Shown piece by piece: positions 1,840 to 47,100 of a DNA stretch of 64,000 nucleotides. The first letter of the stretch is position 1, and the number at the start of each line of letters is the position of its first letter. Under the pieces are notes generated by a model. That model was given only the letters and a program-made list of their open reading frames with translations, had not been told where the DNA came from and ran no database searches. Source of the DNA: an uncultured Aquimarina sp. GTDB lineage: Bacteria; Bacteroidota; Bacteroidia; Flavobacteriales; Flavobacteriaceae. The position numbers and the translations under genes are program-made. The stretch covers positions 150,951-214,950 of the forward strand of contig CANMLS010000005.1 in NCBI GenBank assembly GCA_947498785.1. Direction: 5' to 3'.

Positions 1840-1860
1840 TAAGAATGGCTTATTAAATGA

Positions 1861-5594: not shown

Positions 5595-5595
5595 C

Positions 5596-10875: not shown

Positions 10876-11606
10876 GGATTATCGCTTTTCTTTAATTGTT
10901 CATAGGGATTAATAAGTAGCTTTCTGGTAGTTCTTTATTTGAAGAAAAATTATTTACTCAATAATATTCAAAATCGAAAGGCTTTGACCATTTATAATTC
11001 ATATCGGGGAGAAATTTATTATAAATATAGAGATAATCAAAATCAAAATTTTTAAACCCTTTATAAATAAATTTCAACATTAAAATAGAATGGAAAGACT
11101 CTTTTTTGACATCATCAATGAATAGAACCATTAGATAGGCTTTTTCGGAAATTTGTGATTATACTGATACACTAAATTTCTATTGTGTTCATGTTTTTAT
11201 AGATTACTTTTTTTGTTAACCAAATGTTACTTGTCGGTTAAAAAAGTATCATGATTAGGATGTTATGATAATTTAAATATCTGATTTTGAGCGTTTTGTA
11301 AAATTTTACTATTTACATTTTTTTAAGTACGGTTTTACCTCAAACATCCTATTAATTAAGATTTGTACATTTGAATAGCTTTTGAGAAAACAATTTTTCA
11401 TTTAAGCAGAGTGACATAATTACCTCATTACTTTTATAACAAAAAGATTAATTAAACGCAATAAATTTCTGCTTAGTTAGTCTACTTTCAAAATTATTTT
11501 TAATAATCTTGATTCGCAAAAAATCTTACCAAAAAGGGATTGTGAGTCATATGGCGAAGCTTTATCCTCGATCTAATAAACTTTTATAATCTTAAAACCA
11601 AAGAAT

Positions 11607-12131
11607 ATGTGTATCAGTAAACCTGGCCAATGGTATGTGCTATATGTAAAAGCGCGTCATGAACGAAAAATAGAAAGCCTGTTGAAAGAAAATCAGATAG
11701 AGACATTTTTACCATTAGTTAAAACAGTTCGAAAATGGAGTGATCGAAAAAAAGAGATAGAAGCACCTTTATTTCCCTCTTATGTTTTTGTGAAAATTAA
11801 TTTAAAGAAAGATGCACATAAAGTTTTATCAGTTAGATCCTATTGCTTTTTTATTCGTTTCGGAGATGAATTTGCTAAAGTACAGGAAAGAGAAATAGAC
11901 TCGATTAAACATCTTATAAAAATGAATGTTCCTCTAAAAGTAGAAAATTATACACCGTCAGTAAAAGTAGGTGAACATAGAAAAATAAATAAAGGTGTAC
12001 TAAATGGTTTAAACTGCGAAATTCTTAAAGCTAATAATGAAAATAAAATCGTAGTATTCATTGATTCTATAAAACAAAATATTGTAGCAACAGTACCATC
12101 GTCTTACATTTCTGAAATGGTTGTTGTCTAA
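11607..12131 (+). CDS. NusG-paralog / UpxY-family transcription antitermination protein (NGN + KOW)
   Basis: NGN domain pattern WYVLYVKARHERKIESLLKENQIETFLPLV...RKW.DRKK.IE.PLFPSYVFVKI. C-terminal KOW-like VKVGEHRKINKGVLNGLNCEILK. It is the first gene of the co-directional cluster. Confidence 0.8.
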   Translation: MCISKPGQWYVLYVKARHERKIESLLKENQIETFLPLVKTVRKWSDRKKEIEAPLFPSYVFVKINLKKDAHKVLSVRSYCFFIRFGDEFAKVQEREIDSIKHLIKMNVPLKVENYTPSVKVGEHRKINKGVLNGLNCEILKANNENKIVVFIDSIKQNIVATVPSSYISEMVVV

Positions 12132-12557
12132 GTGAATTTTAATGATATAAAGGTTCAGAGAGTATAAAATTATTTGACTAATCTAGTAATCCAAGCTGGA
12201 TCGGTTGTCTAAATCTTTATGAGTTGATACTTTTTAAAATGTAACAAACTATATAGATTAACAAAACAGCAAACTTCATAACGTTGGGTAAAGCATTTAC
12301 TTCCTAATCTTATTACCCGAAGCATTTTTTAAGCATGTTTCAAGACAAAATTGCTTGAGGATATGGATGTATACTTTACTGTTTTTTTGAGAAAGTAAAG
12401 CTCAAAGGAACTCAAATGTCAGATACACAATAAAATTATATATAAAGTAGGTAAAAATCATTGGTTTTTACACTATCATCAATATAACTGCACAAACACT
12501 TTAACATATTATATCAGGATCATCAAACAGGGGTCTGATTATTAACTCTTTTTATTT

Positions 12558-13556
12558 ATGACTATGGAACTAATTGAAAAAATAAGTAAAATCGAAAAAT
12601 TTATTGGTAATACAAAAACTTACCAATTGGATTATGACCGTTCTAATCTTTTTGCAAAATTGGAATATGGAAGTTTTATGGGAAGTATAAAAGATCGACT
12701 TGCATTTTATACAGTAAGGCAAGCAATACTAGATGGTTATATAAATAAAGATACTACCGTTATAGAATCTTCTTCAGGAAATTTTGCAGTAGGTTTAGCT
12801 GGAATTTGTAAGTGTTTAGGACTTAAATTTATTGCAGTTGTAGATCCTAACATTACAGAAGAAAAAGAAAAACATCTTTCTTTTTTAGCACATGAAACTA
12901 TTAAAGTTCAGAAAAGAGATCAATATGATTCTTATTTACTTACCAGAATCGAATTGATTAACAAAATCCTAAAAGAGAATGATAATTATTTTAATATCAA
13001 TCAGTATAAGAATGTTAATAACTATTTGTGCTACTACAATACAATGGCAAATGAAATCATTAGGGATTTCAAAAGACTAGATTATCTTTTTATAGCTGTA
13101 AGCACAGGGGGTACAGTAACAGGGTTATCATTAAAATTGAAAGAGCATTATCCAAACATTAAGATAGTTGCTGTAGATATAGAAGGGTCAATCATATTTA
13201 GTGATGTGGTTAAAAAGAGGATTATTTCAGGAATGGGAGCGAGTAGAAAGAGCAATTTTATAGAGAAAGGAAAGCTAGATGAAGCAATTATTCTTCCTCA
13301 AGATGAGATCATGCAGGGATGTCTTGATTTGCTGAAAGAGCAAATGGTATTTGCTGGAGGATCCTCTGGGGCGGTATACGTAGCGGCCAAAAAATTACTG
13401 GAGAAAGAAAATAATTCTGATTTGAACGCCTTAATTATATGCCCCGATAGAGGACATGCTTATATAGATAGTATTTATAAAAGAATAGATAACAAAACCC
13501 TTGAAAAACAAAAAGAGTTTTCTGAACCACAACTAGAATACGAGTCATTAGTATAA
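12558..13556 (+). CDS. sbnA: PLP-dependent SbnA-like enzyme (first step of L-2,3-diaminopropionate synthesis)
   Basis: Cysteine-synthase fold with the PLP lysine in FMGSIKDR. ESSSGNFAVGLA, YLLTRIE...NQYKN and VSTGGTVTG track S. aureus SbnA as I recall it. It is paired with an SbnB-like gene. Confidence 0.8.
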   Translation: MTMELIEKISKIEKFIGNTKTYQLDYDRSNLFAKLEYGSFMGSIKDRLAFYTVRQAILDGYINKDTTVIESSSGNFAVGLAGICKCLGLKFIAVVDPNITEEKEKHLSFLAHETIKVQKRDQYDSYLLTRIELINKILKENDNYFNINQYKNVNNYLCYYNTMANEIIRDFKRLDYLFIAVSTGGTVTGLSLKLKEHYPNIKIVAVDIEGSIIFSDVVKKRIISGMGASRKSNFIEKGKLDEAIILPQDEIMQGCLDLLKEQMVFAGGSSGAVYVAAKKLLEKENNSDLNALIICPDRGHAYIDSIYKRIDNKTLEKQKEFSEPQLEYESLV

Positions 13557-13603
13557 AAAGTATTAAAAGAAAATAAAAGATAACCTATCAATATTATAGT
13601 ATA

Positions 13604-14563
13604 ATGATTTACTTAAACGAAAAAGATTTGTTTACAATTGGACTTAACTGGAAAGAATTTACAGAAACAATCAGAGAAGGAGTACGTTGTTTACATCAAG
13701 GAGAAAGTGTACAGCCAATCAAACCATATTTAAGGTTTAAAGACATCAAAAATAGAATTATTGCTATGCCTGCATATCTAGGTAATAATTTTGATGTAGC
13801 CGGAATTAAATGGATAGCAAGCTTTCCTGATAATATCAAAAAAAATAAAGCAAGAGCAAATTGTGTTACCATCTTAAATCATGCAGATACTGGAGAACCA
13901 ATCTGTATTATTAATACCCAACTTATTAGTGTATTAAGAACAACTACAGTAAGTAGACTAATGATCGAAGAGTATTGTTCTTTGAAGAAAATACAAAACC
14001 CTAAAATTGGAATTATAGGGTTTGGACCAATAGGAAAGTATCATTTAGCAATGTGCCAGGACTATTTTAAAGATGACAATGCAGAGTTTTTTATTTATGA
14101 TCTTAATGGAGTACACCCGAAAGATATAGAGATGTACGATAATGTAACCGTTGTTGATAATTGGTATAGTGCATATAAAGATGCAGATGTTTTTATGACA
14201 TGTACAGTTTCTAACGAAAGGTATATTGATAAAAAACCAAAAGAAAACTCACTACACTTGAATGTTTCATTAAGAGATTATAAAACAGAACAGATTGAAT
14301 ATTTTAAAGATGGTATAATAGTAGATAAGTGGAAAGAGATTTGCAGAGAAAATACAGATATCGAAGCTATGCATAAAGAGCGTAATCTCGTTGAAGCTGA
14401 TGTGAAATCTATAGAAGATGTTGTAATCAATAAATGTTTAAAAAATATGATAGATAAAACGGCTATTCTATTTAATCCTATGGGAATGGCAATTTTTGAT
14501 ATAGCTCTAGGACATTATTTCTACAATAAATCAAAAGAACTAGAGGTAGGAGCAGTTTTATAA
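13604..14563 (+). CDS. sbnB: Ornithine cyclodeaminase/mu-crystallin family SbnB-like NAD-dependent dehydrogenase (second step of L-Dap synthesis)
   Basis: VQPIKPYLRF...NRIIAMPAYLG...AGIKWIASFPDN, the Rossmann motif IGIIGFGPIGK, and LFNPMGMAIFDIA match the SbnB pattern (QPLKPYLR...RIIAMPS..GIKWI...LLNPMGMAIEDI). Confidence 0.8.
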   Translation: MIYLNEKDLFTIGLNWKEFTETIREGVRCLHQGESVQPIKPYLRFKDIKNRIIAMPAYLGNNFDVAGIKWIASFPDNIKKNKARANCVTILNHADTGEPICIINTQLISVLRTTTVSRLMIEEYCSLKKIQNPKIGIIGFGPIGKYHLAMCQDYFKDDNAEFFIYDLNGVHPKDIEMYDNVTVVDNWYSAYKDADVFMTCTVSNERYIDKKPKENSLHLNVSLRDYKTEQIEYFKDGIIVDKWKEICRENTDIEAMHKERNLVEADVKSIEDVVINKCLKNMIDKTAILFNPMGMAIFDIALGHYFYNKSKELEVGAVL

Positions 14564-14819
14564 TATTTTTAATAAGAAAGGTGTCCCGTTTTTAATTCAT
14601 TGTACTAGCATTTTTGAGAAAATATAAATCTTTCTCACTCTTCAATTCCTTAATTCATAAACATTGTTTTTATACTTAACAGAGTATAAAAGAAATATCG
14701 TATCAACAATAATTTTTGCATTGTCAAGCAGTAGCGTAGTTGTCCTATAGCACATTATAATAGGTTGTACGATGATTACATGTGTAAAGAAGTTAAAATA
14801 ATAATTAAAAAACTAAAAA

Positions 14820-16208
14820 ATGAGCTCACTTAAAAAATATCATTTATCAGAAACATCAAAAATAGTTTCATCTTCTGTACCAGGAGAAAAATCAAAATTT
14901 TTATTAGATCTGCAAAAAGACATAGAAAGTAGTGTGGTTTCATATCCTATAAGTATGCCTATTGCTATAAAAAGGGCTAAAGGAAGTATTATCGAAGATG
15001 TTGATGGAAATCAATTTATAGATTTTTTTAGTGGATGTGGTGTTTTAAATGTAGGACATAGTAATGATTTTGTTTTAGAATATGTAAAAAAACAACAATC
15101 AGAATTAATTCATGCCTTAGATTTTCCTACAGAAAATAAGCTTTTGTTAATTAAAAAAATAATTAGTCATTTACCAGAAAATATTAGAAATGATTATAAA
15201 GTAAGTTTTGGTGGCCCGACAGGTTCTGATGCTGTTGAAGCGGCAATAAAGTTAGCAAAAATCAAAACGGGAAGAGATGGTATAATTGCTTTTACAGGAG
15301 GTTACCATGGGATGACTTCTGGTGCTTTGGCTGTGACTTCTGATACCTTTTTCAGAAATAATTTAACATCCCTGATGCCTAATGTTCATTTTGCACCTTA
15401 TAATTATCCATACAGAAGTACATCCAATACAACCCATGAGATAGATGGTATAGCTTACTTAAAAAATATACTTACAAACAGCCATTCAGGAATATCTAAA
15501 CCAGCTGCAATTCTTGTAGAACCCATTCAGGGAGAAGGAGGAAATATCGTACCAGAAGATGGCTATCTAGAAGAACTAGTAAGAATTGCCCATGAAAATG
15601 ATGTATTGGTCATATTTGATGAAGTACAGTGTGGTTTTTTTAGAACAGGTAGTTTTTTAGAATTTATGAATACAAATGCTGTACCCGATATTATCACTTT
15701 TTCTAAAGGTTTTGGTGGAATTGGGTTTCCAATTTCGGGATTAATTTATAAAAAAGAAGTTGAAGCCTGGGGGCCTGCAGCGCATATAGGAACTTTTAGA
15801 GGAAATCAGGTAAGTATAGCCGCAGCAAGAGGAGCCTTTGATTTTATTGAGACATATAATATAGAAGAGCATACTGTATTGATAGGTTCCTATTTATTAG
15901 AGAAATTAAAAGAATTGGAAGAAGAAAATCCATTTATAGGAGAAGTACGAGGAAGAGGAATGATGATTGGTGTAGAACTCGTAAAAGATAAAAAAACCAA
16001 GGAACCTTTTCCAGAATTCATGAAAAAATTCAGATCTCAATGCTTTCAAAGAGGTTTATTATTCGAAGTAGGAGGACATTATAATAATGTATTACGGCTG
16101 GTTCCTCCATTAGTTACTACATATAACATTGTAGACGAAGCAATAGCTATTATGAAAGAAGCTATAGCTGTTTGTATGGAAGAATATTTAGAACCTACTC
16201 TAGCTTAA
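14820..16208 (+). CDS. Class-III PLP aminotransferase, diaminobutyrate-2-oxoglutarate transaminase-like (EctB/PvdH-type)
   Basis: IESSVVSYPISMPIAIKRAKG resembles the EctB N-terminal ES.VRSY.R.FP motif. Other matches are GVLNVGHSN, FTGGYHG, FDEVQCGFFRTG and the PLP lysine in TFSKGFGG. Confidence 0.75.
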   Translation: MSSLKKYHLSETSKIVSSSVPGEKSKFLLDLQKDIESSVVSYPISMPIAIKRAKGSIIEDVDGNQFIDFFSGCGVLNVGHSNDFVLEYVKKQQSELIHALDFPTENKLLLIKKIISHLPENIRNDYKVSFGGPTGSDAVEAAIKLAKIKTGRDGIIAFTGGYHGMTSGALAVTSDTFFRNNLTSLMPNVHFAPYNYPYRSTSNTTHEIDGIAYLKNILTNSHSGISKPAAILVEPIQGEGGNIVPEDGYLEELVRIAHENDVLVIFDEVQCGFFRTGSFLEFMNTNAVPDIITFSKGFGGIGFPISGLIYKKEVEAWGPAAHIGTFRGNQVSIAAARGAFDFIETYNIEEHTVLIGSYLLEKLKELEEENPFIGEVRGRGMMIGVELVKDKKTKEPFPEFMKKFRSQCFQRGLLFEVGGHYNNVLRLVPPLVTTYNIVDEAIAIMKEAIAVCMEEYLEPTLA

Positions 16209-16229
16209 ATCCTAATAAAACAAATAATA

Positions 16230-17990
16230 ATGTCACTCATGAAATCGTCTGTTCCAGAAAGTATACCCATTGAAAAAACACTAATAGAAATATTTGAAGC
16301 ACACCTGAAGCGATCACCAAACAAAATTCTGTATAGATTCTTGGCAAATGGAGATGAAGAAAGCGATTCGAGAACGTATCAGGAATTATATAATAGAGCT
16401 CAAATTATAGCATCTCATATTTTAGAATATGTCAATCAGGGAGACCGTGTTCTATTATTGTTTCCCTCTGGACTAGATTTTACAGACGCTTTTTTTGGCT
16501 GCCTACTTGCAGGAGTTATTGCAGTTCCTGCTTTTCCTCCTCAAGGGAAGCGAAGAATAGGCAGATTAGAAAAAATAGTTTCAGATTGTAATGCTAGTCT
16601 TGTTTTAACCAAAGAAGGAATTTATGAAAAAACTAAGACATGGTTTGATTCAGAATTAGATTGGCTTAAAACAGATATTATAGGTAATCATATTGAGAGA
16701 AAACTACCTGTTATTAGCTCAGATACCATTGCTTTTTTACAATATACTTCTGGATCGACAGGAAACCCGAAAGGGGTAATTGTAGATCACTCTAATATAA
16801 TCCATAACAGCGAATTGTTTAAAAAATGTTTCCAAACAGATGCTAAATCTGTTGGAGTTTCATGGCTTCCGATATATCATGATATGGGATTAATAGGGAA
16901 CGTAATTCAAGCATTTTATGTTGGGTTTGAGCTTATTATAATGCCTCCAGTGGCATTTGTTCAAAAGCCAGTTAGGTGGTTAAAAGCATTTTCAAAATAT
17001 AGAGGAACGATTAGTTGCGGGCCAAATTTTGCATATGATTTATGTACAAACCAAATAAGAAACGAGGATTTAGAAGGAATAGATTTAAGTAGTTGGCGGG
17101 TAGCGATTAATGGATCAGAACCTATTCGTCCTGATACTTTTGAAAAGTTTGCTTTACGATTCGAAAAATACGGTATTCAAAAAAAAACCTTATTTCCTGG
17201 ATATGGACTAGCAGAGGTCACACTAACTGTAAGCGGATGTAAGTTTGATGGCTTTCCAGTAACGTTAGAACTAGAAAAGAAGAGTTTTAAAAATAAAGAG
17301 ATAAAAGTTCTAACATCTTCTCAAAGTCAAAATGACACGATACGATTAATGGGAAATGGACCTGTGATAGATGGTTTGATTGTGAAAATTGTAGATCCAA
17401 AAACAAAGAAGGTTTGTGATAAAAATCAGATAGGTGAGGTCTGGATCAGTGGAGCGAGTGTTGCAAAAGGATATTGGGAAAAAGAAGAGACTACAAAAGA
17501 AATTTTCCATGCATTTCCCAAGGATACTAAGGGAGTAGAAAATAAAGAAGAAGGTCCTTTTCTACGTACAGGAGATATGGGATTCCTTTATGATGGAGAA
17601 CTCTATATCTCTGGTCGTTTAAAGGAGATGATCATTTTTAATGGGGTTAATTATTATCCACAGGATTTAGAACGTACCGTACAATACTCTCATTCAGATC
17701 TACAAAACAATGCAGGAGTAGTATTCTGTACAAATATAGATGAACAAGAAAAGTTAATAGTAGTACAAGAAATTAAACGAACAAGTATACGAACGTACAA
17801 TCGAGAATCTTTAGTACAAAGTATTTGTCAATCCATATTAGAAGAACATGAACTACCAGTTTATAGTATTATTTTAATTAGTCCAGGGCGAGTATCCAAA
17901 ACTTCGAGTGGTAAAATTCAACGTTTAGCCACTAAGTTGGCCTATGAATCTGATACTCTCGATGGAGTAATTGATTCTTGGAAAAGAGGA
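16230..17990 (+). other. Fatty acyl-AMP ligase (FAAL) domain
   Basis: AMP-binding cores LQYTSGSTGNPKG, YGLAE, GDMGF and GRLKEMII, with a FAAL-style N-terminus (TLIEIFEAHLKRSPNKILYRFL). Approximate boundaries. Confidence 0.8.
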
Positions 17991-20900
17991 GTGGTTTTAG
18001 AAGGAGAACATATGCCGATTTCTGAACAAATGTTATATAAGAATAGTAATTATCTTATAACATGGCTTCAGGAACGTATTTCAGAAGAATTAAAACTAAC
18101 TCCTTCACAAATTCAGATACACAAACCTTTTGCAGAATTAGGAATGACTTCTTTACAAGGTATTCGATTATCGGGGTTATTGTCTGAATATTTAGATCGA
18201 GATATTTCTCCAACATTAATATATAGTTATTCAACTATAACTGATTTGGTAACCTATTTGTTAGAGGAAGAAAAAAGTGTTCTTGAGACTCATGAACAAA
18301 AAGATTTCTTAAAAAATGAGCCCATAGCTATTATAAGTATGGCATGTCGGTTCCCAGGAGCAGAGAATGTTCAAGAATTTTGGGAAAATCTAATATCTGC
18401 AAAAGATGCAATTAAAGAAGTTCCTAATGATAGATGGGATATAGACGAATTGCATGGAGATATTTTGGATGGACATAACATGAATACTCGTTGGGGAGGG
18501 TTTATAAACGATGTATCAGAATTCGATGCAGATTTTTTTGATATCACTCCGCAAGAGGCCAAAAAAATGGATCCTCAACAGCGTATACTATTAGAGTTAA
18601 GTTATCATTTATTAGAAAATTCTCGTAATGATTTAGAATCATTTAAAGGAACAAATACAGGTGTTTTTATTGGGATAAGCCAGAATAGCTATAATGATTT
18701 GATTAAAAGCAGCAAACAAGATAAGAATGTGTATTCGGGTTTAGGAAGTGCTTTAAGTATTGCCGCTAATCGGTTGTCTTATTATTATAATTTTAGTGGA
18801 CCCAGTATGGCTATAGATACAGCGTGTTCTTCTTCGTTGGTAGCTGTTGATACAGCAGTAGAAAAATTACGTAAAGGTAAGTGCGATATGGCAATTGCTG
18901 GAGGTGTTAACTTAATCATATCTCCAGAAATAACAATTGCTCTATCCCAAGCTGGAATGATGTCTACAGATGGTAGATGTAAAACATTTGATAGTAGTGC
19001 TAATGGATATGTTCGTAGTGAAGGTTGTGGATTAGTATTGTTAACTACTTTATCTAAAGCACAAAAAGGAGGTCACAATATATTGGGAGTAATAAAAGGT
19101 AGTGCTGTTAATCAAGATGGACATAGTAATGGATTATCAGCTCCCAATGGTTTGGCTCAGGAATCAGTCATGAAAAAAGCACTACAAGATGCTCAAGTCA
19201 CTCCAGAAACTATAAGCTACATAGAAACTCATGGTACAGGAACCTCACTTGGTGACCCTATAGAAGTAAGTTCAATAAACAAAGTTTATAATGTAAATCG
19301 TTCTAAAAAAGATCCGCTATACCTCGGAGCAGTTAAAGCCAATATAGGACATCTGGAATCTGCTTCAGGAATTGCGGGACTTATTAAAGCCGTATTTTGT
19401 TTACAGTATAAAAAAATTCCTGCCCAACTTCATTATAACAATCCCAACCCACATATTAACTGGGAAAATATGCCTGTAGCCATTTCCAGTAAAACTATGG
19501 AATGGAATGCTATTGAGGAAAATATGGTAAAAAGAGCAGGTGTTAGTTCTTTTGGTTTTGGAGGTACCAATGCCCACTTAATTCTTGAAGAAGCACCAGA
19601 AGTAACTAAAAAAGAATTAGAAGAAAGTAATTTATCACGAACGTTTCACTTAATTACAATATCAGCAAAAAAAGAAACAGCATTAGATCATCAGGTTGAT
19701 CGAATTCTTAAATATGTTGAAGAAAATCCTAAAATATCGTTAAGTGATTTAGCGTATAGTTTAGCCGTTACCAGAACACATTATAAAAATCGCTTGGGAA
19801 TTATCTGTAAAAACATAGATGATGTTAAAAACAAACTCAATTCGGAAAAACTAGTCATAAAGGATAATATTAAAAATAAAATAAAATTTAAAATAGCCTT
19901 TTTATTTACTGGTCAAGGTTCTCAATATATTAATATGGGTAAATCCTTATATTTTAATGAACCAGTCTTTAAAGAAGCTCTTGATCAATGTTCCTTCCTT
20001 TTAACCTCTTATCTAGAAGAAGATATATTAGAAATTTTGTTCTCTGAAGAGAGAAGTTCAAAAGCTGAATTATTAGATCAGACAGCATATACACAACCAG
20101 CGCTATTCTCATTAGGGTATGCATTATATAAATTATGGCAAAATTGGGGAGTACAGCCAGATGTAATATTGGGCCATAGTATTGGAGAAATTACAGCAGC
20201 TTGCATCGCAGGAGTTTTTACATTGGAAGAGGCTATTAAGTTAGTAGCGTCTAGAGGAAAACTAATGCAGGAACTTAAAGAAAAGGGTATGATGGTTTCT
20301 GTAAGATGTGATAAAGATGTGATTTCGAAATTTATTCATAAGTATGAAGGTAGGATATCCATAGCAGCAATTAATACTCCAAATCAAACAGTAATATCAG
20401 GATGTTCAAAGGCAATAAAAGAATTGCAGGAAGAACTGACTACAGAAGAAATAAAATACAAACAACTTAAGGTTTCAAATGCATTCCATTCACCCCTTAT
20501 GAAACCTATGCTATCATCATTTCTTGCCATTGTAAATACTATTGAATTTCAATCACCTACATATAAAATAATAAGTACTGTATCAGGAAAAGTGGCGGGA
20601 AAAGAAATCAGTACACCAGAGTATTGGGTTGATCATATAAGTGCCCCTGTTGATTTCTTACAGGCAATGACTTTTTTAAACAAAGAAGAAGAAGCAACCA
20701 TATTCATAGAATTGGGCCCGCACCCTGTATTGATACCCATGGGAATTCATTGTATAGAAGATAGTAATAGAATCCATTGGTTACCTTCTCTCAAAAAAGA
20801 AAAAAATGAAGAACAACAAATGATAGAAAGTTTAGGAAGATTGTATAACGCAGGTGGTCAGCTGAATTGGAACGGGTTTTATGCAAACAGAAATGTGAAT

Positions 20901-23900
20901 AAGGTTGATTGTCCAACATATGCTTTTCAACGAAAACGATTCTGGTGTGAAAAAGAAGGTAGTGAGTATACACAGAATAAAAGCGATAACAAATTAATTA
21001 ATCAAGAAAATCAAAATTCTATGTCTATAGTATTTAAAGATATTGAAAATCGATTGCGAACAATGATTTCACAGACTTTACAAATAGATTCAAATGAGAT
21101 TTCTTTAAATGCTTCATTACTTGAGCTTGGTGCAGATTCTTTAGTTTTAATAGAATTTATAAATAAGGTACAAAAGGAATATAGAGTACCTATATCGATA
21201 CGTAATTTGTTTGAAGAATTAAATAATCTGGAAGCGTTAATTGATTATATCATAACGAATACAAAGACTAAAGAAAAGAATATTTTAAAAGTTGGTAGTG
21301 ATAAAAAAAGGGACACTTATTCTAAAGAAAACGAGATTAGCTCAAATAATTTCTATAGTTTAAATGAACCTTCCTTGGATGTCCTACATATTTTGAGGAG
21401 TCAGTTTGAAGAACAAAATAAAATACTATCAGAATATCTCAATCTTTCGGATACATCCTCTTTGAAAAGAAAAGATATTGATGAAATATATAGAGTTTCA
21501 GCAACACAATCAAATACTGCTAATGATGTAAAATTGGGAAGTTCAAAACCAAAAGGAGTTTTACCATTCTTTGCACAGGAAGCAGTATACTTCAGTAAGT
21601 TTCCAGATAATCAAAAAGAAAGTTTACCTGAGTTAATTAATAATTATGTTAATAAAACGGAAAATTCAAAGGCTTATGCATCATACTATCAGAATGTGTT
21701 AGCGGATTCTGGATCAGCTTTTAGGTTTAATATTGCAACCAAAGAGATGATTTATCCGATTATAAGTAAGAAGGCATCTGGTTCCAAATTCATAGATATT
21801 GATGGTAACGAATATATTGATATCATTATGGGATTTGGTTCCTGCATATTTGGACACCAACCAGATTTTATTAATAAAGCATTTCATGATCAATTAGATA
21901 AAGGAATTAACATAGGACCGTTTTCTAACCTGTCTGGAGAAGTAGCAACACTTGTTTCAGAATTAACAGGAATGGAGAGAGTATGCTTTGCTAATACAGG
22001 AAGTGAAGCAGTTTCATTCGCATTGCGATTGGCTAGATCCGTTACGAGGAAAAGAAAGATAGTTATTTTCTCAGGATCATATCATGGGCATGCGGATATT
22101 GTGTTAGGTGTATCTGGAGCCATAGATGGAGAAACTGATCCTATGGTTGAAGGAATAACCAAAAACGCAGTTCAGGATTTGATCGTTTTAAATTATTCTG
22201 ATGATAACATCGTCGAAGAAATTAGAAAATATGCAGATGATATTGCCGGTGTTCTTGTTGAACCAGTAAGAAGTAGATATCCTGATTTTCAACCAAAAGA
22301 AATATTGCATGAATTAAGAGTGGTGACAAAAGAGTTGGACATACCACTAATTTTTGATGAGATGATTACTGGTTTTAGAATTATGCCAGGAGGAGCACAG
22401 GAGTATTTTGGAATTAAAGCAGATATCGCTACTTATGGTAAAATAGTAGGAGGAGGAATGCCTATTGGTATTGTTGCTGGGACTAGAAAATATTTAGATG
22501 CAGTAGATGGGGGGAGTTGGAAATTTGGAGATGATTCTTATCCTAGAGTGAGTAGAACTTTTGTTGCAGGAACTTTTACGAGGCATCCATTAACGATGGC
22601 GGCTTCTAGAGCAGTACTTACAAGAATAAAAGAGATAGGTGCAAAAGCTTATTTAGATTTGAACAAAAAAACAGAAGAATTGGTAAACCGTTTAAATGAT
22701 TATTTTAAACAAGAAACATTACCAATTAAGATGGTTCGTTTTGGTTCTTTGTTTGCTATCAAAAATACAGGAGTGGCAGACGTTTTGGTTTTTTATCTTC
22801 TACAAAAAGGAATCTACGCTTTATCCTCGAATAATTTGTTTTTAACATTTGCTCACTCTAAAGAAGATATAGAAAAAATTTATGAAGCAATATGTAAAAG
22901 CGCTCAAAAAGCATATAATGGAAGTGAAAGTATAGATTCGAAAGTGACCTCACAAAGGGGGAGCAAAAACCAAAAAACATCCAAAATAGATTTGACTCTG
23001 GCTCAAAAACAATTATTTCTACTAGATCAAATTGACTCCAAACGATCTTTAGGATATATTCAGTGTTTCAGCTTAAAAATGATAGGGGAATTAGATTTGA
23101 AAATATTAAATGAAGCTGTAAATCATTTATTAGAAGAACATCCAATTCTGAGAAGTAGGATTTCTAAAAATGGAGAATCTTTAATATTTGATGAATCAAT
23201 ATTTTTAGAAATAGAGAAAATTGATTTATCTCAATATAACAGTAATAATAAAGAGAATTATCGATTATTTATAAATGAAAATTTAAAGACCTCTTTCTCT
23301 TTGAATAAAGGTCCTCTAATTCGACTTCAGTACATACAATTTTCTGAAAAGGAGCACATTTTGATAGTTACTATCAATCATATTATTTCAGATGGATGGT
23401 CCTGTACAGTGTTTGCCAAAGAATTAATAGAAAATTATAAGAAATTGTATTCAGGTGAAAAATTGAATTATTCGCCAAAAATACAATTCTCTTCATATGT
23501 TGATTGGTTAAGTCAATATAGAAAAAGTGAAAAATGGGAAAGTCATGAATCCTATTTTTTAGATAATTTTAGTAACAAGGATTTTGGATTATCCTTACCA
23601 TCAGATACCACCTATGGTAATAAAGGAGAAATTAGCTCTGTTTTTTTTAGAATTGAAAAAAGCGAGGTAAAAACGTTTAAAAAGTGGAGTATAGAAAATG
23701 GATTAACTCTATTTATGACATTTTTGTGCTCGTTTGAGTTATTGCTTTTCAGGTTATGTAGACAGCAAGAGATTGTTTTAGGAATATCAGTAGGAGGTCG
23801 TTCTATGCCTGATATGGATAGAACAATAGGTTATTTTGCACACATCATTCCATTATTCTCAAGATATAGAGAAGAAAAGAAAATAACAAATTATCTACAG

Positions 23901-26138
23901 GAATTTAAAGATAGAGTGATTGATGCTTTTGAACATCAAGATTATCCTTATGCAGATTTTATCACACTAATGCAAAGAGAGAAAGGAAGAGCATACCAAG
24001 GAATACAGGCAGAATTTAACTTTGATGTTGCTATTGGAGATATAGAAATGGAAGGGTTAGAATTGACTTTTGAAGAACATAAACCTTTTTATCGCGATTT
24101 TGATTTAACCTTAAATGCCAGAGAGCAAAATGGGGATATAGTGTTAAGTCTGGATTATCAGAAATCTTTGTGGAGTAATCATTTGGCAAATGAGGCTTTA
24201 GATTGTTTTAAACACATACTGTATCAGCTAATACAAAACAGAGAAATAAGGTTACTTGATATAGACTTATTGTCACAAAGCAAAAAAGACCAGATTTTAT
24301 ACGAATTTAATGATACCAAAACAGATTATCCGTTAGATAAAACATTGGTTGATTTACTAAAAGAAAAGGCAAAACAAATTCCAGATAAAATAGCAATTGT
24401 ATTTGAGGAAACAACTCTTACATACAAGGAGTTGGATGAAAAATCAAACCAGCTAGCTCATTATTTAAGAGAAAGAGGAATAAGAGAAGACGTTTTGATT
24501 CCAATTTGCTTAGAACGTTCTATAGAAATGGTTATTGCCATATTAGGGGTCTTTAAATCTGGAGGAGCTTATGTTCCTATGAAACCAGATTATCCCGAAT
24601 CTCGGATACATTATATTTTAAAAGAAATCCAAGCAACAATCATACTTACAGATAAGAGTACTAGTTTGATTGTTTCTAAAAGTGATGAGGTAGAAGTTTT
24701 CAGAATAGATAATGAAGAAGCTCTATTGGAACGCTATCCGATTACATCATTAAACATAACAATTTCGCCGAGTTCATTATCGTACGTAATCTATACTTCA
24801 GGCAGTACAGGGAAGCCTAAAGGGGCAATGATTGAACATCGAGGGATGCTAAATCATCTGCTCGCAAAAATAGATGGTTTAGGGGTTACTTCAGATAGTA
24901 TAGTGGCTTTTACAGCTCCATTTACATTTGATATATCGGTATGGCAGATGTTCAGCGCTTTGCTAATGGGTGGAAATATAGTGATTTATAAAGAAGAAAT
25001 GATCTATGAGCCTACCTCGTTATTAACTTCTATAAAAGAAAATAATGTAAACATACTTCAACTGGTCCCTTCGTATGTTTCTGAAATATTGAATATAGAT
25101 TCAGAAAATGTACTTAATCAACTCAATTATTTTATTGTAACTGGAGAGGCTGTTTCACCAGCACTACTATCTGATTGGTTTAATAAATATCCCAAAGTCC
25201 CTGTGGCAAATGCTTATGGACCTACCGAAGCTTCAGATGATGTGAGTACTCATTATATGAATCAGACTCCAGATGTAGTTAATGTTTCTATTGGTAAACC
25301 TATGTCTAATCTACAATTGTATGTAGTTGACTCATCGTCAAACTTATGCCCTGTTGGAGTTCAAGGAGAATTGTGGGTTTCTGGTATAGGGGTAGGAAGG
25401 GGATACCTTAATGATGAAGAAAAAACCAAGAAAAGTTTTATAGACAATCCATTTGTAGAAGGAGAACGAATTTATAAAACGGGAGACCTGGCGCGATGGT
25501 TACCAGATGGCAGTTTAGAATATTTGGGAAGGATTGACAATCAGGTGAAAGTTAGAGGTCATAGAATTGAATTAGGAGAAATCGAAAATTTATTATCAAA
25601 ATCAAGAGCAGTAAAGAGTTGTTGTGTTCTAGCCAAGAAGGATCATAGAGGAAGTAATCGTTTGATTGGTTATGTGGTTTCTGAAGAAGAATTTGACAAG
25701 TACAACTTACAAAACTATCTAAAATCAAAACTACCAGAGTATATGGTGCCAGGATTGTGGATAAATCTGGATGTAATGCCATTAACAGCCAATGGAAAAA
25801 TTGATAGAAAAGCTCTTCCAAATCCCGATGAATCAGAGTTTTCGGCACAAGAATATACAGCTCCTACAAATGAAACCGAATCTCAATTGGTTATGATCTG
25901 GCAGAATTTATTGGGAATTGATAAAATAGGAATTCACGACGACTTTTTTGAATTGGGGGGACACTCATTATTAGCAACACGATTAGTATCAGAACTTCGA
26001 AAATCAATGAAAGTTGAACTGACCATAAAAGACATTTTCGAGTTTGCTACAATAGAACAATTAGCACTTTGTCTACAGTATGTTATAGATGAACAGAAAA
26101 AGGATAAAAAAGAATATAAACTAACTATTGAACTGTAA
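16230..26138 (+). CDS. Hybrid loading/PKS/NRPS megasynthase: FAAL-ACP-KS-AT-ACP-aminotransferase-C-A-T (3302 aa)
   Basis: Uninterrupted 9.9 kb ORF. Core motifs of every domain are listed in the domain entries below. Confidence 0.95.
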   Translation: MSLMKSSVPESIPIEKTLIEIFEAHLKRSPNKILYRFLANGDEESDSRTYQELYNRAQIIASHILEYVNQGDRVLLLFPSGLDFTDAFFGCLLAGVIAVPAFPPQGKRRIGRLEKIVSDCNASLVLTKEGIYEKTKTWFDSELDWLKTDIIGNHIERKLPVISSDTIAFLQYTSGSTGNPKGVIVDHSNIIHNSELFKKCFQTDAKSVGVSWLPIYHDMGLIGNVIQAFYVGFELIIMPPVAFVQKPVRWLKAFSKYRGTISCGPNFAYDLCTNQIRNEDLEGIDLSSWRVAINGSEPIRPDTFEKFALRFEKYGIQKKTLFPGYGLAEVTLTVSGCKFDGFPVTLELEKKSFKNKEIKVLTSSQSQNDTIRLMGNGPVIDGLIVKIVDPKTKKVCDKNQIGEVWISGASVAKGYWEKEETTKEIFHAFPKDTKGVENKEEGPFLRTGDMGFLYDGELYISGRLKEMIIFNGVNYYPQDLERTVQYSHSDLQNNAGVVFCTNIDEQEKLIVVQEIKRTSIRTYNRESLVQSICQSILEEHELPVYSIILISPGRVSKTSSGKIQRLATKLAYESDTLDGVIDSWKRGVVLEGEHMPISEQMLYKNSNYLITWLQERISEELKLTPSQIQIHKPFAELGMTSLQGIRLSGLLSEYLDRDISPTLIYSYSTITDLVTYLLEEEKSVLETHEQKDFLKNEPIAIISMACRFPGAENVQEFWENLISAKDAIKEVPNDRWDIDELHGDILDGHNMNTRWGGFINDVSEFDADFFDITPQEAKKMDPQQRILLELSYHLLENSRNDLESFKGTNTGVFIGISQNSYNDLIKSSKQDKNVYSGLGSALSIAANRLSYYYNFSGPSMAIDTACSSSLVAVDTAVEKLRKGKCDMAIAGGVNLIISPEITIALSQAGMMSTDGRCKTFDSSANGYVRSEGCGLVLLTTLSKAQKGGHNILGVIKGSAVNQDGHSNGLSAPNGLAQESVMKKALQDAQVTPETISYIETHGTGTSLGDPIEVSSINKVYNVNRSKKDPLYLGAVKANIGHLESASGIAGLIKAVFCLQYKKIPAQLHYNNPNPHINWENMPVAISSKTMEWNAIEENMVKRAGVSSFGFGGTNAHLILEEAPEVTKKELEESNLSRTFHLITISAKKETALDHQVDRILKYVEENPKISLSDLAYSLAVTRTHYKNRLGIICKNIDDVKNKLNSEKLVIKDNIKNKIKFKIAFLFTGQGSQYINMGKSLYFNEPVFKEALDQCSFLLTSYLEEDILEILFSEERSSKAELLDQTAYTQPALFSLGYALYKLWQNWGVQPDVILGHSIGEITAACIAGVFTLEEAIKLVASRGKLMQELKEKGMMVSVRCDKDVISKFIHKYEGRISIAAINTPNQTVISGCSKAIKELQEELTTEEIKYKQLKVSNAFHSPLMKPMLSSFLAIVNTIEFQSPTYKIISTVSGKVAGKEISTPEYWVDHISAPVDFLQAMTFLNKEEEATIFIELGPHPVLIPMGIHCIEDSNRIHWLPSLKKEKNEEQQMIESLGRLYNAGGQLNWNGFYANRNVNKVDCPTYAFQRKRFWCEKEGSEYTQNKSDNKLINQENQNSMSIVFKDIENRLRTMISQTLQIDSNEISLNASLLELGADSLVLIEFINKVQKEYRVPISIRNLFEELNNLEALIDYIITNTKTKEKNILKVGSDKKRDTYSKENEISSNNFYSLNEPSLDVLHILRSQFEEQNKILSEYLNLSDTSSLKRKDIDEIYRVSATQSNTANDVKLGSSKPKGVLPFFAQEAVYFSKFPDNQKESLPELINNYVNKTENSKAYASYYQNVLADSGSAFRFNIATKEMIYPIISKKASGSKFIDIDGNEYIDIIMGFGSCIFGHQPDFINKAFHDQLDKGINIGPFSNLSGEVATLVSELTGMERVCFANTGSEAVSFALRLARSVTRKRKIVIFSGSYHGHADIVLGVSGAIDGETDPMVEGITKNAVQDLIVLNYSDDNIVEEIRKYADDIAGVLVEPVRSRYPDFQPKEILHELRVVTKELDIPLIFDEMITGFRIMPGGAQEYFGIKADIATYGKIVGGGMPIGIVAGTRKYLDAVDGGSWKFGDDSYPRVSRTFVAGTFTRHPLTMAASRAVLTRIKEIGAKAYLDLNKKTEELVNRLNDYFKQETLPIKMVRFGSLFAIKNTGVADVLVFYLLQKGIYALSSNNLFLTFAHSKEDIEKIYEAICKSAQKAYNGSESIDSKVTSQRGSKNQKTSKIDLTLAQKQLFLLDQIDSKRSLGYIQCFSLKMIGELDLKILNEAVNHLLEEHPILRSRISKNGESLIFDESIFLEIEKIDLSQYNSNNKENYRLFINENLKTSFSLNKGPLIRLQYIQFSEKEHILIVTINHIISDGWSCTVFAKELIENYKKLYSGEKLNYSPKIQFSSYVDWLSQYRKSEKWESHESYFLDNFSNKDFGLSLPSDTTYGNKGEISSVFFRIEKSEVKTFKKWSIENGLTLFMTFLCSFELLLFRLCRQQEIVLGISVGGRSMPDMDRTIGYFAHIIPLFSRYREEKKITNYLQEFKDRVIDAFEHQDYPYADFITLMQREKGRAYQGIQAEFNFDVAIGDIEMEGLELTFEEHKPFYRDFDLTLNAREQNGDIVLSLDYQKSLWSNHLANEALDCFKHILYQLIQNREIRLLDIDLLSQSKKDQILYEFNDTKTDYPLDKTLVDLLKEKAKQIPDKIAIVFEETTLTYKELDEKSNQLAHYLRERGIREDVLIPICLERSIEMVIAILGVFKSGGAYVPMKPDYPESRIHYILKEIQATIILTDKSTSLIVSKSDEVEVFRIDNEEALLERYPITSLNITISPSSLSYVIYTSGSTGKPKGAMIEHRGMLNHLLAKIDGLGVTSDSIVAFTAPFTFDISVWQMFSALLMGGNIVIYKEEMIYEPTSLLTSIKENNVNILQLVPSYVSEILNIDSENVLNQLNYFIVTGEAVSPALLSDWFNKYPKVPVANAYGPTEASDDVSTHYMNQTPDVVNVSIGKPMSNLQLYVVDSSSNLCPVGVQGELWVSGIGVGRGYLNDEEKTKKSFIDNPFVEGERIYKTGDLARWLPDGSLEYLGRIDNQVKVRGHRIELGEIENLLSKSRAVKSCCVLAKKDHRGSNRLIGYVVSEEEFDKYNLQNYLKSKLPEYMVPGLWINLDVMPLTANGKIDRKALPNPDESEFSAQEYTAPTNETESQLVMIWQNLLGIDKIGIHDDFFELGGHSLLATRLVSELRKSMKVELTIKDIFEFATIEQLALCLQYVIDEQKKDKKEYKLTIEL
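18040..18270 (+). other. ACP 1 (phosphopantetheine Ser codon 18150-18152)
   Basis: FAELGMTSLQGIRL. Confidence 0.8.
18318..19600 (+). other. Ketosynthase (KS) domain, active-site Cys codon 18825-18827
   Basis: EPIAIISMACRFPG, DTACSSSL, ETHGTGTSLGDPIE, NIGHLESASG and GFGGTNAHLILEE. Confidence 0.9.
19890..20945 (+). other. Acyltransferase (AT) domain incl. linker, Ser codon 20178-20180, malonyl-type motif
   Basis: FLFTGQGSQY, GHSIGE, and VSNAFHS (HAFH-like, so malonyl-CoA is predicted). Confidence 0.8.
21030..21260 (+). other. ACP 2 (Ser codon 21138-21140)
   Basis: LLELGADSLVLIEF. Confidence 0.8.
21690..22920 (+). other. Embedded PLP aminotransferase (AmT) domain, glutamate-1-semialdehyde aminomutase-like; Lys codon 22440-22442
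   Basis: FIDIDGNEYIDIIMGFGSCIFGH, ANTGSEAVSFALRLAR, FSGSYHGH, FDEMITGFR and ATYGKIVGGGMP. This matches the position and type of the AMT domain in mycosubtilin MycA / iturin ItuA. Confidence 0.8.
22990..26080 (+). other. NRPS module 1: C (His motif NHIISDG at 23376-23396) - A (code DIWQITADDK, diamino-acid-like) - T (Ser codon 25965-25967)
   Basis: LTLAQKQLFLLDQ, NHIISDGWS, SYVIYTSGSTGKPKG, FTFDISVWQ, NAYGPTEASDD, GRIDNQVKVRG and FFELGGHSLLATRL. Confidence 0.8.
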
Positions 26139-26148
26139 TTGTAAGCAA

Positions 26149-26330
26149 ATGAAAAATAATGTTTTTGATATTTTAAAAAGAGCAAATAAAGAAGGAATAA
26201 GAATAGAATTGACGAATAATTCTTTGAGTATAAAATCAGAAAATGAAAAGATTGATTCTGAATTGCTTAAGGATATAAAATCATACAAAACATCAATTGT
26301 TGATCATTTAAAGAAATACAAAAATGAATT
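26149..26330 (+). other. TubC-type N-terminal docking domain
   Basis: VFDILKRANKEGIRIELTNNSLSIKSENEKIDSELLKDIKSYKTSIVDHLKKY fits the L..L...G..L...G..L.......L...I...K..I...L pattern. Confidence 0.6.
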
Positions 26331-29300
26331 TAAAACTCCTTCAATAATTTCATCAATTGGGGCCTATGATCGAGCGACTATAAACAAAATTCCACTATCA
26401 TTTAACCAGGAACGTTTATGGTTCATAGATAAATTACAAGAAGGAAGTGCAGAATATCATATGCCTTTGATATTAAAACTAAAAGGTAATATTAATGAGG
26501 CTGTACTAGATTCGGCGTTGCAAGAGATTATTTCTAGACATGAAATATTGCGTACTACAATATATACAGAAGAAGGTATAGGATATCAGTTAATAAAATC
26601 CATAGACCAATGGAGGTTAATATTTCAGACATATCATAAACATGTAGAGATAGAAGAAGCTATAGAGGCATTTGTGAAGACTCCATTTGATTTGTCCCAA
26701 GACTATATGGTTAGAGCTTGCCTATACAGGTTAAATCAAGAAGAGTGTTTTTTGGCTTTAGTGTTTCATCATATTGTAGCAGATGGATGGTCACATAGTA
26801 TTATTATTAAGGAATTTAACGAACTGTATAATGCACGTCTGAAGCAGAGATCACCAAAATTAGAACCATTACCTATTCAGTATGCAGATTATGGGATATG
26901 GCAGAAGAGTTATTTTGATGAGGTAGAATTAGAAAAGCAACTAATATACTGGAAAACTCAACTCAGAGAGGTGTCCAACCTGATATTACCTCTAGATTAT
27001 AAACGCCCATCTGTACAAAGTACAAAAGGAGCAAGTTATTCTTTTAAGTTAGATGATGAACTGTGTCAGGAAGTAATACAATTATCAGATCAGGAAGGGG
27101 TTACATTGTTTATGTTATTATTATCCGCTTTCAAAATAGTATTACACAGGTATAGTGGTCAGGATGATATCTGTATAGGAACTCCCATTGCTAATCGAAC
27201 AGTAGCAGAATTAGAAGGTTTAATTGGTTTTTTTGTTAACACATTGGCAATTAGAAGTGATTTTAGTGATGATCCGACATTCATCGATATATTAAAGAAA
27301 GTTAAGAAAACAATGCTTAATGCTTATGAATATCAAATGGTTCCATTCGAAAAAGTGGTAGATGCTGTTGTGGGTACACGGGATATGAGTATTAGCCCTT
27401 TGTTTCAGGTAATGTTTGCATTACAGGATACTCCAGAAGAAATCGTATTAGATGGAGTCGATATCTCTATTCATGAGTATAAGAACTCAACATCAAAGTT
27501 TGATTTTACAATGGTGGTTATAAATAACCAGTCCAGCCTTTCTCTCGAAGTAGAGTACTGCACTGATCTATTTAAAGAAAGTACAATTCACCAAATGATA
27601 GTACACTATCAGCAAATTTTAAAGAGTATTGTTAAAAACCCTAAAGAACGTATAGGATTATTACCAATGTTAACTACAACCGAAGAAGAGCAATTACTAG
27701 CTGCTTTCAATGCTACCCAAGTTACATATCCAAAAGATAAAACTATAGTAGATCTGTTTGTAGATCGGGTAAACAAACAACCTGAAAATATAGCAATTGT
27801 ATGTAATAATAGGCATATTACCTATAAAGAGCTAGATGAAGCGTCTAGTCGTTTGGCAAATTTTTTATGGTCAAATTATGATATAGCTAAAGAAGATTTA
27901 ATTGGAGTAAAACTAGAACGAAGCGAATGGTTAATCATAGCTTTTCTTGCAGTTTTAAAAACAGGAGCTGCTTATGTTCCTATAGATCCTAACTATCCAA
28001 AGGAAAGAATAGCATATATCGAAAGCGACAGTAACTGTAGTGGTATTATTGATGACAATTTACTCCAGAAATTCATACAAAATGAAGAATCATATCATAC
28101 CGAATTACCTCAAATCGATATAGAAACTAACAACTTGGCCTATGTTATATATACATCTGGTTCTACAGGCAAACCAAAAGGGGTATTGATAGAACATAGG
28201 GGTATTATAAATACAATATTATCTCAAATAAATGATTTTTTTATTAAAAAAACAGATCATTGTTTACAATTTTCGAACCAATCATTCGATGCCTCTATTT
28301 GGGAAATATTGATATCATTATTAGGAGGAGCAAAGCTTTTTATAATAGATGAAAATGTAAAATCTGATACTAATCAGTTTGTAGAATACATTCAGGATAA
28401 TAAGATAACTTTTGCTACGCTACCTCCCGCATTTTTAAAACTAATCGATTGTGAACAGATACAATGTATTAATACATTAATTACCGCAGGAGAAGAAGCT
28501 CCATTAGAGCAGGTAAAAAAAATCTCAAAGTCTGGAACATACATTAATGCTTACGGTCCTACAGAAACAAGTATATGCGCAACTACTTATAGAGGAAATA
28601 TTACTTCTTCTGTCCCAATAGGAAAACCAATCTCTAATACAGAAACATACATTTTGGATAAAAATCAACAATTGTTGCCTATTGGATGTGTTGGAGAATT
28701 ATGCATTTCGGGCAATGGTTTGGCAAGAGGATACTTAAATCAAGAGGCATTAACCAATGAAAAATTTATACCTAATCCATTTTTTGCCCGAGATAGGATA
28801 TACAGAACCGGGGATTTAGCAAAATGGTTACCTGATGGTAATATTGAATTCATAGGAAGAGCAGATAATCAGGTTAAGATTAGAGGGTATCGAATAGAAT
28901 TAGGAGAGATTGAAGGTGTATTGCATGAAATACCAGAAATAGACCAATCTGTTGTTTTGGCAAAAGAAGATGTAAGCGGCAATAAACGTCTGGTTGGTTA
29001 TGTGGTTACCAAAAAAGTGTTTAATAAAGAATTAATAGAGGAACAATTAAAATCAAAATTGCCAGAGTATATGGTGCCAAGATTATGGATATCATTAGAT
29101 ACAATACCAATAACTTCAAATGGTAAAGTTGATAAGAAGAATCTTCCAGATCCTGATATGTCCAATTATGCAACTGCTGCATATGTTGCACCAAGAAACG
29201 AAACAGAAGAACAATTGGTTACTATTTGGGAGGCATTGCTGAATACTAATACTATAGGGATACATGATGATTTTTTTGAGTTGGGAGGGCACTCTTTGTT

Positions 29301-32623: not shown

Positions 32624-32800
32624 ATGAGTAAAAAGATTCTAGACCTTTTAAAAAGATTACATAAAGAAGGAATTAAAATAGAGCTAGATCAAGGTTCCTT
32701 ATCTATAAAATCAAAACAAGATAGTATTGAATCGATATATCTTGAAGAAATAAAAACATATAAACAAGATATTATATCCTACCTAGAAAAACATCAAAGT
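32624..32800 (+). other. TubC-type N-terminal docking domain
   Basis: ILDLLKRLHKEGIKIELDQGSLSIKSKQDSIESIYLEEIKTYKQDIISYLEKH is clearly paralogous to the 26149 N-terminus. Confidence 0.6.
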
Positions 32801-46901: not shown

Positions 46902-47100
46902 ATGAAAAAAATAGAGGACTTTATTAGTCAATTGGCAATCTATGGTTTGTTTTTGAATGAAAAAAATGAGGAACTAACTTTAAAAAAACATAAAAATAAG
47001 TCAAATGTTAAGTTTTATGACCTAAAAGAAGATAAACTTAATATTATAGACTTTTTAAAAAATAATAAGGAAAGCCTAATCACATTTTTAAAGGAAGAAA
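46902..47100 (+). other. Divergent N-terminal docking region
   Basis: IEDFISQLAIYGLFLNEKNEELTLKK...IIDFLKNNKESLITFLKEE has the same overall pattern as the other two N-termini but is much more diverged. Confidence 0.4.

Follow-up and report, generated by a model that had tools for sequence, protein, structure and literature searches.

Directly upstream of the genes for a nine-module nonribosomal peptide synthetase (NRPS), the DNA analysed here carries three genes that most probably supply it with two different diamino acids. The DNA, hereafter the window, is a stretch of 64,000 nucleotides from an uncultured Aquimarina sp. (assembly GCA_947498785.1, contig CANMLS010000005.1, positions 150,951 to 214,950), and the region at 12558-16208 holds exactly three co-oriented open reading frames (ORFs) of 332, 319 and 462 amino acids, all intact. 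At a probability of roughly 0.8, these genes constitute the L-2,3-diaminopropionate (Dap) and L-2,4-diaminobutyrate (Dab) precursor supply of a cluster for a pedopeptin-type cationic lipopeptide. In the proposed pathway the first, SbnA-like enzyme would join O-phospho-L-serine and L-glutamate to N-(1-amino-1-carboxyl-2-ethyl)-glutamic acid (ACEGA), from which the second, SbnB-like enzyme would release Dap and 2-oxoglutarate, and the third, an aminotransferase, would convert aspartate semialdehyde to Dab. Both products would then be used by the synthetase, with Dap going to modules 1 and 6 and Dab to module 3, to give the peptide acyl-Dap-Phe-Dab-Thr(->Dhb)-Leu-Dap-D-Leu-Val-Asp (Dhb, dehydrobutyrine), which is the peptide of pedopeptin B. 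From sequence, colinearity and context we infer the substrates of each enzyme and adenylation (A) domain, as well as the structure of the product. The initial annotation of this DNA had pointed to a mismatch between two diamino-acid supply routes and a single class of diamino-acid A domain; this mismatch is largely explained and appears fairly ordinary.

The first gene of the putative Dap route (12558..13556, forward strand, as are all genes of the supply region and the synthetase) encodes a pyridoxal phosphate (PLP) enzyme of fold type II (Pfam PALP, 176 bits). Its top NCBIfam match is the SbnA family TIGR03945 with 329.5 bits, which lies below the curated equivalog cutoff of 349.95 bits but 160 bits over the second family, the cysteine synthases (cysKM, 169 bits). 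Among solved structures the top match is Staphylococcus aureus SbnA (5D84, 191 bits), followed by CmnB (133 bits), with CysK and cysteine synthases at 115 bits or less. The lysine that forms the Schiff base with PLP is kept (K45 in SIKDR, corresponding to K47 in SMKDR of S. aureus). The residues R132, Y152 and S185 of S. aureus SbnA have been credited with selective binding of O-phosphoserine (PMC12414870) and distinguish SbnA from CysK/CysM, a distinction that the initial annotation had named as the check; the equivalents of all three are present as R130 (LLTRI), Y150 (INQYKN) and S183 (AVSTGG).

The second gene (13604..14563) starts 47 bp past the first and encodes an NAD-dependent dehydrogenase of the ornithine cyclodeaminase fold (Pfam PF02423, ornithine cyclodeaminase/mu-crystallin). 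The SbnB family TIGR03944 is its top NCBIfam match with 280.9 bits, missing the curated cutoff of 326.9, and the second family reaches 81 bits; S. aureus SbnB (4M54) is by far its top match among solved structures, with 129 bits against 57 for the second. The earlier reading of an sbnA/sbnB-like pair is thus borne out by the family profiles, the structural matches and the kept SbnA residues. As in the staphyloferrin B system of S. aureus, a PLP-dependent beta-replacement enzyme and a dehydrogenase of the ornithine cyclodeaminase fold are encoded by adjoining genes. The window proteins are divergent from those of S. aureus, with scores of 191 and 129 bits against them and values below the NCBIfam equivalog cutoffs. 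An sbnAB pair directly 5' of an NRPS is a feature that the window cluster shares with Chitinophaga flava, Pedobacter cryoconitis and the metagenomic locus L026 described below. The dabABC route to 2,3-diaminobutyrate was considered and rejected, since its partner enzymes are a threonine kinase and one resembling argininosuccinate lyase, not an SbnB-type dehydrogenase.

The third gene (14820..16208) encodes a class-III aminotransferase (Pfam PF00202, 310 bits) with the PLP lysine at residue 296 in the motif TFSKG, and a gap of 21 bp separates it from the first synthetase gene. Its top four NCBIfam matches are all diaminobutyrate--2-oxoglutarate transaminases (424.7, 384.7, 375.5 and 371.6 bits), against 363 bits for the acetylornithine aminotransferase family and 315 for gamma-aminobutyrate (GABA) aminotransferase; the match to TIGR00709 (384.7 bits) lies below the cutoff of that family (401.6). 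Close homologues are common in NRPS clusters of Bacteroidota, and many are labelled diaminobutyrate-2-oxoglutarate transaminase, in KEGG style, in Joint Genome Institute (JGI) records. Two of these homologues, 79-81% identical to the window protein, occur near an aspartate kinase, as expected for a route via aspartate semialdehyde. In A. muelleri the gene (81% identical; L024 10001-13185) adjoins the kinase gene behind an UpxY antiterminator, with no NRPS nearby; in a Tenacibaculum cluster the aminotransferase gene is found at one end (L017 10001-11383) and the kinase gene at the other (L027 24731-26062). Such neighbourhoods look like a dedicated cassette for the supply of aspartate semialdehyde and Dab. 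Some ectoine clusters carry a specialised aspartokinase together with EctB, a pairing that the homologues of the window aminotransferase echo. The window enzyme also shares the class-III fold, the PLP lysine and the top profile families with EctB, Dat and PvdH, but it differs from them in that it lacks an ectoine or siderophore context, scores below curated cutoffs and does not have EctB singled out as its nearest relative among solved structures. The co-occurrence of supply genes and A-domain codes was judged within 10-kb flanks, and three further loci (L023, L025 and L028), which hold the aminotransferase gene without sbnAB 5' of an NRPS and show no diamino codes in the modules in view, are uninformative in this respect.

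A reordered set of supply genes was observed on an 8.1-kb contig of Pedobacter terrae (L018), where the aminotransferase gene is followed by a Cupin_8/JmjC hydroxylase gene, SbnA and SbnB. This set stands between an NRPS fragment, recognised by a weak Condensation-domain match only, and the start of the next NRPS gene, whose first A domain has the code DSWDIGLIGK.

The synthetase is encoded by four genes (16230-54230) that together make up nine modules. Gene 1 (16230..26138) is a hybrid of polyketide synthase (PKS) and NRPS with the Pfam domain order FAAL-ACP-KS-AT-ACP-aminotransferase-C-A-T (fatty acyl-AMP ligase, acyl carrier protein, ketosynthase, acyltransferase, aminotransferase, condensation, adenylation and thiolation domains) and contains module 1. 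Modules 2 and 3 are encoded by gene 2 (26128..32613; C-A(Phe)-T-C-A-T), and modules 4-7 (Thr, Leu, Dap and Leu) by gene 3 (32624..46825), in which Pfam finds five C-like, four A and four T domains and which ends in an epimerization (E) domain. Gene 4 (46902..54230) completes the assembly line with modules 8 and 9 and a thioesterase (TE) domain, in the order C-A(Val)-T-C-A(Asp)-T-TE. Stachelhaus specificity codes were read against a GrsA reference; this reference gives DAWTIAAICK at the canonical positions and reproduces the codes printed in a published table. The codes of modules 1-3 are DIWQITADDK, DAWTIAAICK (Phe) and DIWQLTADDK, those of modules 4-6 DFWNIGMVHK (Thr), DAWYLGNVVK (Leu) and DIWQITADDK, and those of modules 7-9 DAWYLGNVVK (Leu), DAIWIGGTFK (Val) and DLTKIGHIGK (Asp). 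The order is therefore X-Phe-X-Thr-Leu-X-Leu(E)-Val-Asp, where X marks the three diamino-acid positions, and the codes of modules 1, 3 and 6, extracted independently, are identical to those read initially.

The condensation-type domains fit this order. The C domain of module 1 keeps its catalytic His (NHIISDG). The sole E-type domain, with the motif HHLVVDGVSW at residue ~4390 of gene 3, follows module 7, and the first C domain of gene 4, which comes after it, is divergent, as expected for an acceptor of a D-residue. The C domain that follows the Thr module, that is, the C domain of module 5 (36041-37378; gene 3 residue ~1290), has no more than 22% identity to any other C domain of the cluster and is a candidate for a dehydrating C domain that would convert Thr4 to Dhb. 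The motif FHHAILDGWS is common to this domain and its counterpart in L026.

Pedopeptin is cyclo[(R)-3-hydroxyacyl-L-Dap-L-Phe-L-Dab-(E)-Dhb-L-Leu-L-Dap-D-Leu-L-Val/OHVal-L-Asp], where OHVal is hydroxyvaline (PMC7979671). The nine modules of the window are colinear with this structure residue for residue, down to the lone D-residue at position 7 and the presence of a Thr module where Dhb stands, and the 2:1 split of the diamino-acid codes (modules 1 and 6 as opposed to module 3) equals, position by position, the two Dap and one Dab of pedopeptin. Since the colinear product contains both diamino acids, both would be needed. No hydroxylase gene was detected among the window genes in a Pfam scan of the window, and Val rather than hydroxy-Val is therefore expected at position 8, as in pedopeptin B. 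Pedopeptins A-D and the isopedopeptins of Pedobacter spp. thus have the same nine-residue order, the two Dap, the one Dab and the lone D-residue at position 7 in common with the product predicted here. They differ in that a 3-hydroxy fatty acid is introduced via a C-starter domain and the ring is a lactone, whereas the synthetase of the window begins with FAAL-ACP-KS-AT-ACP-aminotransferase, and in that the producer of pedopeptin is a Pedobacter while the host of the window is a marine flavobacterium.

Closely related clusters retain the same combination of genes and codes. The closest genome match, Aquimarina sp. Aq78 (SbnA 91% and aminotransferase 94% identical), has the gene order of the window: UpxY, SbnA, SbnB, aminotransferase and PKS-NRPS. 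A published Aquimarina cluster, AQU3 (GenBank PQ867815), has the code DIWQITADDK at A1 and A6, predicted as Dap, and DIWQLTADDK at A3, predicted as Dab, followed after A3 by Thr, Phe, Dap, Leu, Val and Asp, and its start is given as a 'PKS domain' (PMC12677607 supplement). The Dap/Dab reading of DIWQITADDK and DIWQLTADDK is thus already published, as a prediction; the code strings themselves gave no match when looked for in the main texts of articles. AQU3 agrees with the window in its source at the genus level, its PKS-type start, the codes of modules 1, 3 and 6 and the codes for Thr, Leu7, Val and Asp. It differs at module 5, where it has a Phe code and the window the Leu code DAWYLGNVVK, as in pedopeptin. 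Its likeness to pedopeptin B was remarked by its authors (Adv Sci 2025, PMC12677607), who list pedopeptin B with a Cs domain (PMC12677607 supplement); the AQU3 product was synthesised from the prediction with a 3-hydroxy acid and never isolated (PMC12677607). In a further published cluster, AQU2, only the QL code (DIWQLTADDK) occurs, a 1389-bp aminotransferase gene, of the same length as that of the window, lies directly 5' of the PKS-NRPS gene, and sbnA/sbnB are absent from the 11 listed ORFs (PMC12677607).

A more distant relative, L026 (JGI metagenome 3300025298, contig Ga0209050_1000438), was found by a search of representatives with the atypical post-Thr C domain. This locus has a G+C content of 51% and a complete-looking layout, with a response regulator, sbnA, sbnB, a six-module NRPS with a C-starter domain (6575 amino acids) and a three-module NRPS, and its synthetase is roughly 47-50% identical to that of the window. 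It nevertheless has the nine-residue order and the E-domain position of the window, with codes of the Tyr/Phe type at position 2 and of the Ile type at position 8. Positions 1, 3 and 6 read DIWEMTADDK, DIWQLTADDK and DIWELTADDK, so that the exact code of window module 3 recurs at position 3 while the other two positions bear Dap-type codes. The predicted peptide is Dap-Tyr/Phe-Dab-Dhb-Leu-Dap-D-Leu-Ile-Asp.

Where the product chemistry has been established, codes with E at position 278 accompany Dap. The Chitinophaga flava locus has SbnA and SbnB ahead of a single C-A-T module with the code DIWELTADDK and then NMeVal and Thr, which fits the acyl-Dap-NMeVal-Thr of chitinopeptins C and D; in Pedobacter cryoconitis, SbnA and SbnB are followed by an NRPS with the order EL, EL, EM, Thr, which fits the acyl-Dap-Dap peptides reported from this species. 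The window domains are of the Q278 type. Modules 1, 3 and 6 have nine of the ten code residues in common and form one group, within the Flavobacteriia QL clade, in a neighbour-joining tree. In these respects the single class of A domain noted at first holds; over their whole length, however, the domains are only 61-66% identical, modules 1 and 6 being the closest pair, and they differ at the pocket-proximal positions 214, 299, 320 and 334. In GrsA numbering, modules 1 (24183..26021) and 6 (40382..42217), both predicted to load Dap, have AK at 213-214, I at 299, A at 320 and T at 334, and module 3 (30661..32502), predicted to load Dab, has LM, L, V and F at these sites. Comparison of 15 QL domains with 79 E-type domains gave only four discriminating columns, 214 (M vs K), 278, 326 and 334, all of which belong to the 34 pocket-proximal positions of the NRPSpredictor list. 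The Dap-type K214 is present in modules 1 and 6 of the window, and the same split recurs in L026, whose positions 1 and 6 have K214 and whose position 3 has M214/L299/F334. On the favoured reading, modules 1, 3 and 6 descend from a common Q278-type ancestor and are told apart by residue 299 together with residues outside the code. That module 3, with its L299, differs functionally from modules 1 and 6 had been one of the options raised initially, and it is the option favoured by the colinearity with pedopeptin, the AQU3 codes and L026.

Another option was that modules 1, 3 and 6 are promiscuous for Dap and Dab and yield a mixture of congeners 14 Da apart at positions 1, 3 and 6. The nearly identical codes and the clustering in the tree would be compatible with this, as would the difference of one methylene between the two substrates. 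However, the position-specific residues K214/I299/T334 and M214/L299/F334 are conserved between the window and L026, which argues for selection on distinct specificities, and the reported composition of the natural Pedobacter peptides is constant at two Dap and one Dab, the known congeners differing in the acyl chain and in Val/OHVal; promiscuity is consequently regarded as improbable. Even less credence is given to the possibility that all three domains load one diamino acid, the other supply route being a relic or serving a pathway outside the cluster. Three intact genes in one co-oriented array directly 5' of the synthetase, at a 21-bp gap, speak against it, as do the same gene triad in Aquimarina sp. 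Aq78 and the match by position of the 2:1 codes to the two Dap and one Dab of pedopeptin, although the codes form a single family and Bacteroidota have many sbnAB cassettes, which at times act in trans. The third alternative concerns the 462-residue aminotransferase, which might instead act as a transaminase of the GABA or acetylornithine type, or as a racemase sharing that fold; Dab would then be obtained from elsewhere or not used. The scores against solved structures, with an alanine/serine racemase and GABA transaminase slightly over the Dab transaminases, and the NCBIfam scores below cutoffs would allow this reading, but it is made very unlikely by the four top profiles, by the homologues so named in JGI records and by the occurrence of homologues in NRPS clusters with QL-type codes and of two homologues near an aspartate kinase (adjacent in L024, at the far end in L027). 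The identification as a Dab transaminase made at the outset therefore holds as far as the profiles go, the top four being Dab and not ornithine or GABA families, and receives no discrimination from the structural scores.

A supply of both Dap and Dab, each for its own modules, requires neither promiscuity nor the use of a precursor elsewhere, and the initial statement that the sequence does not resolve the matter was too pessimistic, as it is mostly resolved by the colinearity with pedopeptin, by AQU3 and by L026. Several observations nonetheless weigh against this assignment. All three supply enzymes score below NCBIfam curated cutoffs, two of them narrowly, and the aminotransferase gives nearly tied scores among solved structures (archaeal alanine/serine racemase 252.8 bits, GABA transaminase 245.2, Dab transaminases 233.7 and 220.4). 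As whole domains, modules 1, 3 and 6 group together, so that Dap at modules 1 and 6 depends on few residues, the colinearity and sbnAB. The Pedobacter producers were compared by product structure, and the independent synthetase that was compared, L026, is a JGI metagenomic contig. A rule by which L299 means Dab was rejected, since the chitinopeptin and Pedobacter loci pair DIWELTADDK with Dap and L299 alone is no marker of Dab; on a Q278 background, residue 299 combined with 214 and 334 does track position. In addition, the rules that connect codes and supply genes are not perfectly clean, as seen in Tenacibaculum sp. MAR_2010_89 (L017, L027). Its cluster has three DIWEMVADDK domains and one DIWQLTADDK domain; published predictions assign DIWEMVADDK to Dap, and the part of the locus in view contains the aminotransferase and the aspartate kinase and no sbnA/sbnB. 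The DIWEMVADDK domains form a separate long branch in the A-domain tree; they may take a substrate other than Dap, or sbnAB might act in trans.

The acyl part of the product may depart from that of the pedopeptins. The in-line aminotransferase domain of gene 1 (about 21750-22900) has the aminotransferase domain of MycA (6KFM) as its top match among solved structures, with 434 bits, followed by glutamate-semialdehyde aminomutases with 190 bits, and its PLP motifs DEMITGF and ATYGK are intact. No KR (ketoreductase) domain was found by Pfam in gene 1. The synthetase thus starts without the C-starter domain of pedopeptin-type NRPSs, would not be expected to close their lactone ring, and has the layout of an iturin-type loading module. 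The order FAAL-ACP-KS-AT-ACP-aminotransferase without KR suggests a beta-amino fatty acid and a macrolactam (amide) ring, as in the iturins, and this is what the domain order predicts for the window product. Gene 1 resembles MycA of mycosubtilin/iturin synthesis in the arrangement acyl ligase-ACP-KS-ACP-aminotransferase-C-A-T; it differs in having the AT in cis, a cationic nonapeptide unrelated to the iturins and a host among the Bacteroidota.

A more tentative proposal, to which we give somewhat less than even odds, links these observations: the Dap domains of modules 1 and 6 would have arisen within the lineage of this cluster from a Dab-type DIWQL ancestor by M214K, L299I and F334T, and the product would be an undescribed macrolactam analogue of pedopeptin with a beta-amino fatty acid, and not a 3-hydroxy-acyl lactone such as the synthetic work on AQU3 assumed. 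If so, M214K/L299I/F334T would represent a natural minimal switch from Dab to Dap specificity. The residues form a small, testable set for switching A domains between substrates one methylene apart, and K214/I299 as opposed to M214/L299 on a DIWQxTADDK background offers a concrete rule for reading such clusters. Pedopeptins and isopedopeptins are lipopolysaccharide-binding antibiotics active against carbapenem-resistant Gram-negatives. The published work on synthesis from prediction did not include the lactam-closed analogue that the iturin-like start suggests, which might resist hydrolysis better.

The cluster is headed by a gene for a UpxY-family (NusG-like) transcription antiterminator (11607..12131, forward strand; NF033644 131.4 bits, cutoff 100; Pfam NusG). 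A gene of this type also heads the related clusters L001, L017, L020, L024 and L025, and its position at the head of several NRPS clusters of Bacteroidota suggests processive antitermination of very long operons. Sites resembling promoters or terminators were no commoner in 10800-16400 than in shuffled sequence, and no RNA family was detected in the window with Rfam. The G+C content of the window is ~31%. Downstream of the synthetase, and on the same strand, Pfam identifies a major facilitator superfamily (MFS) transporter (54355-55626), a type II thioesterase (55641-56408) and a phosphopantetheinyl transferase (56479-57225).

Upstream of the cluster, on the reverse strand, lie an 811-residue ORF (6728-9163) with no Pfam or NCBIfam match and two small ORFs (9272-9664 and 9694-10050) with no Pfam match. 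Further out, proteins sorted by the type IX secretion system, with Big_2/CBM6 and BACON domains, are encoded on both flanks (19-4311 and 59457-62087), and a PfkB kinase and a KDPG (2-keto-3-deoxy-6-phosphogluconate) aldolase are encoded at 4590-6264. These flanking genes are ordinary genes of polysaccharide use and mark the boundaries of the cluster.

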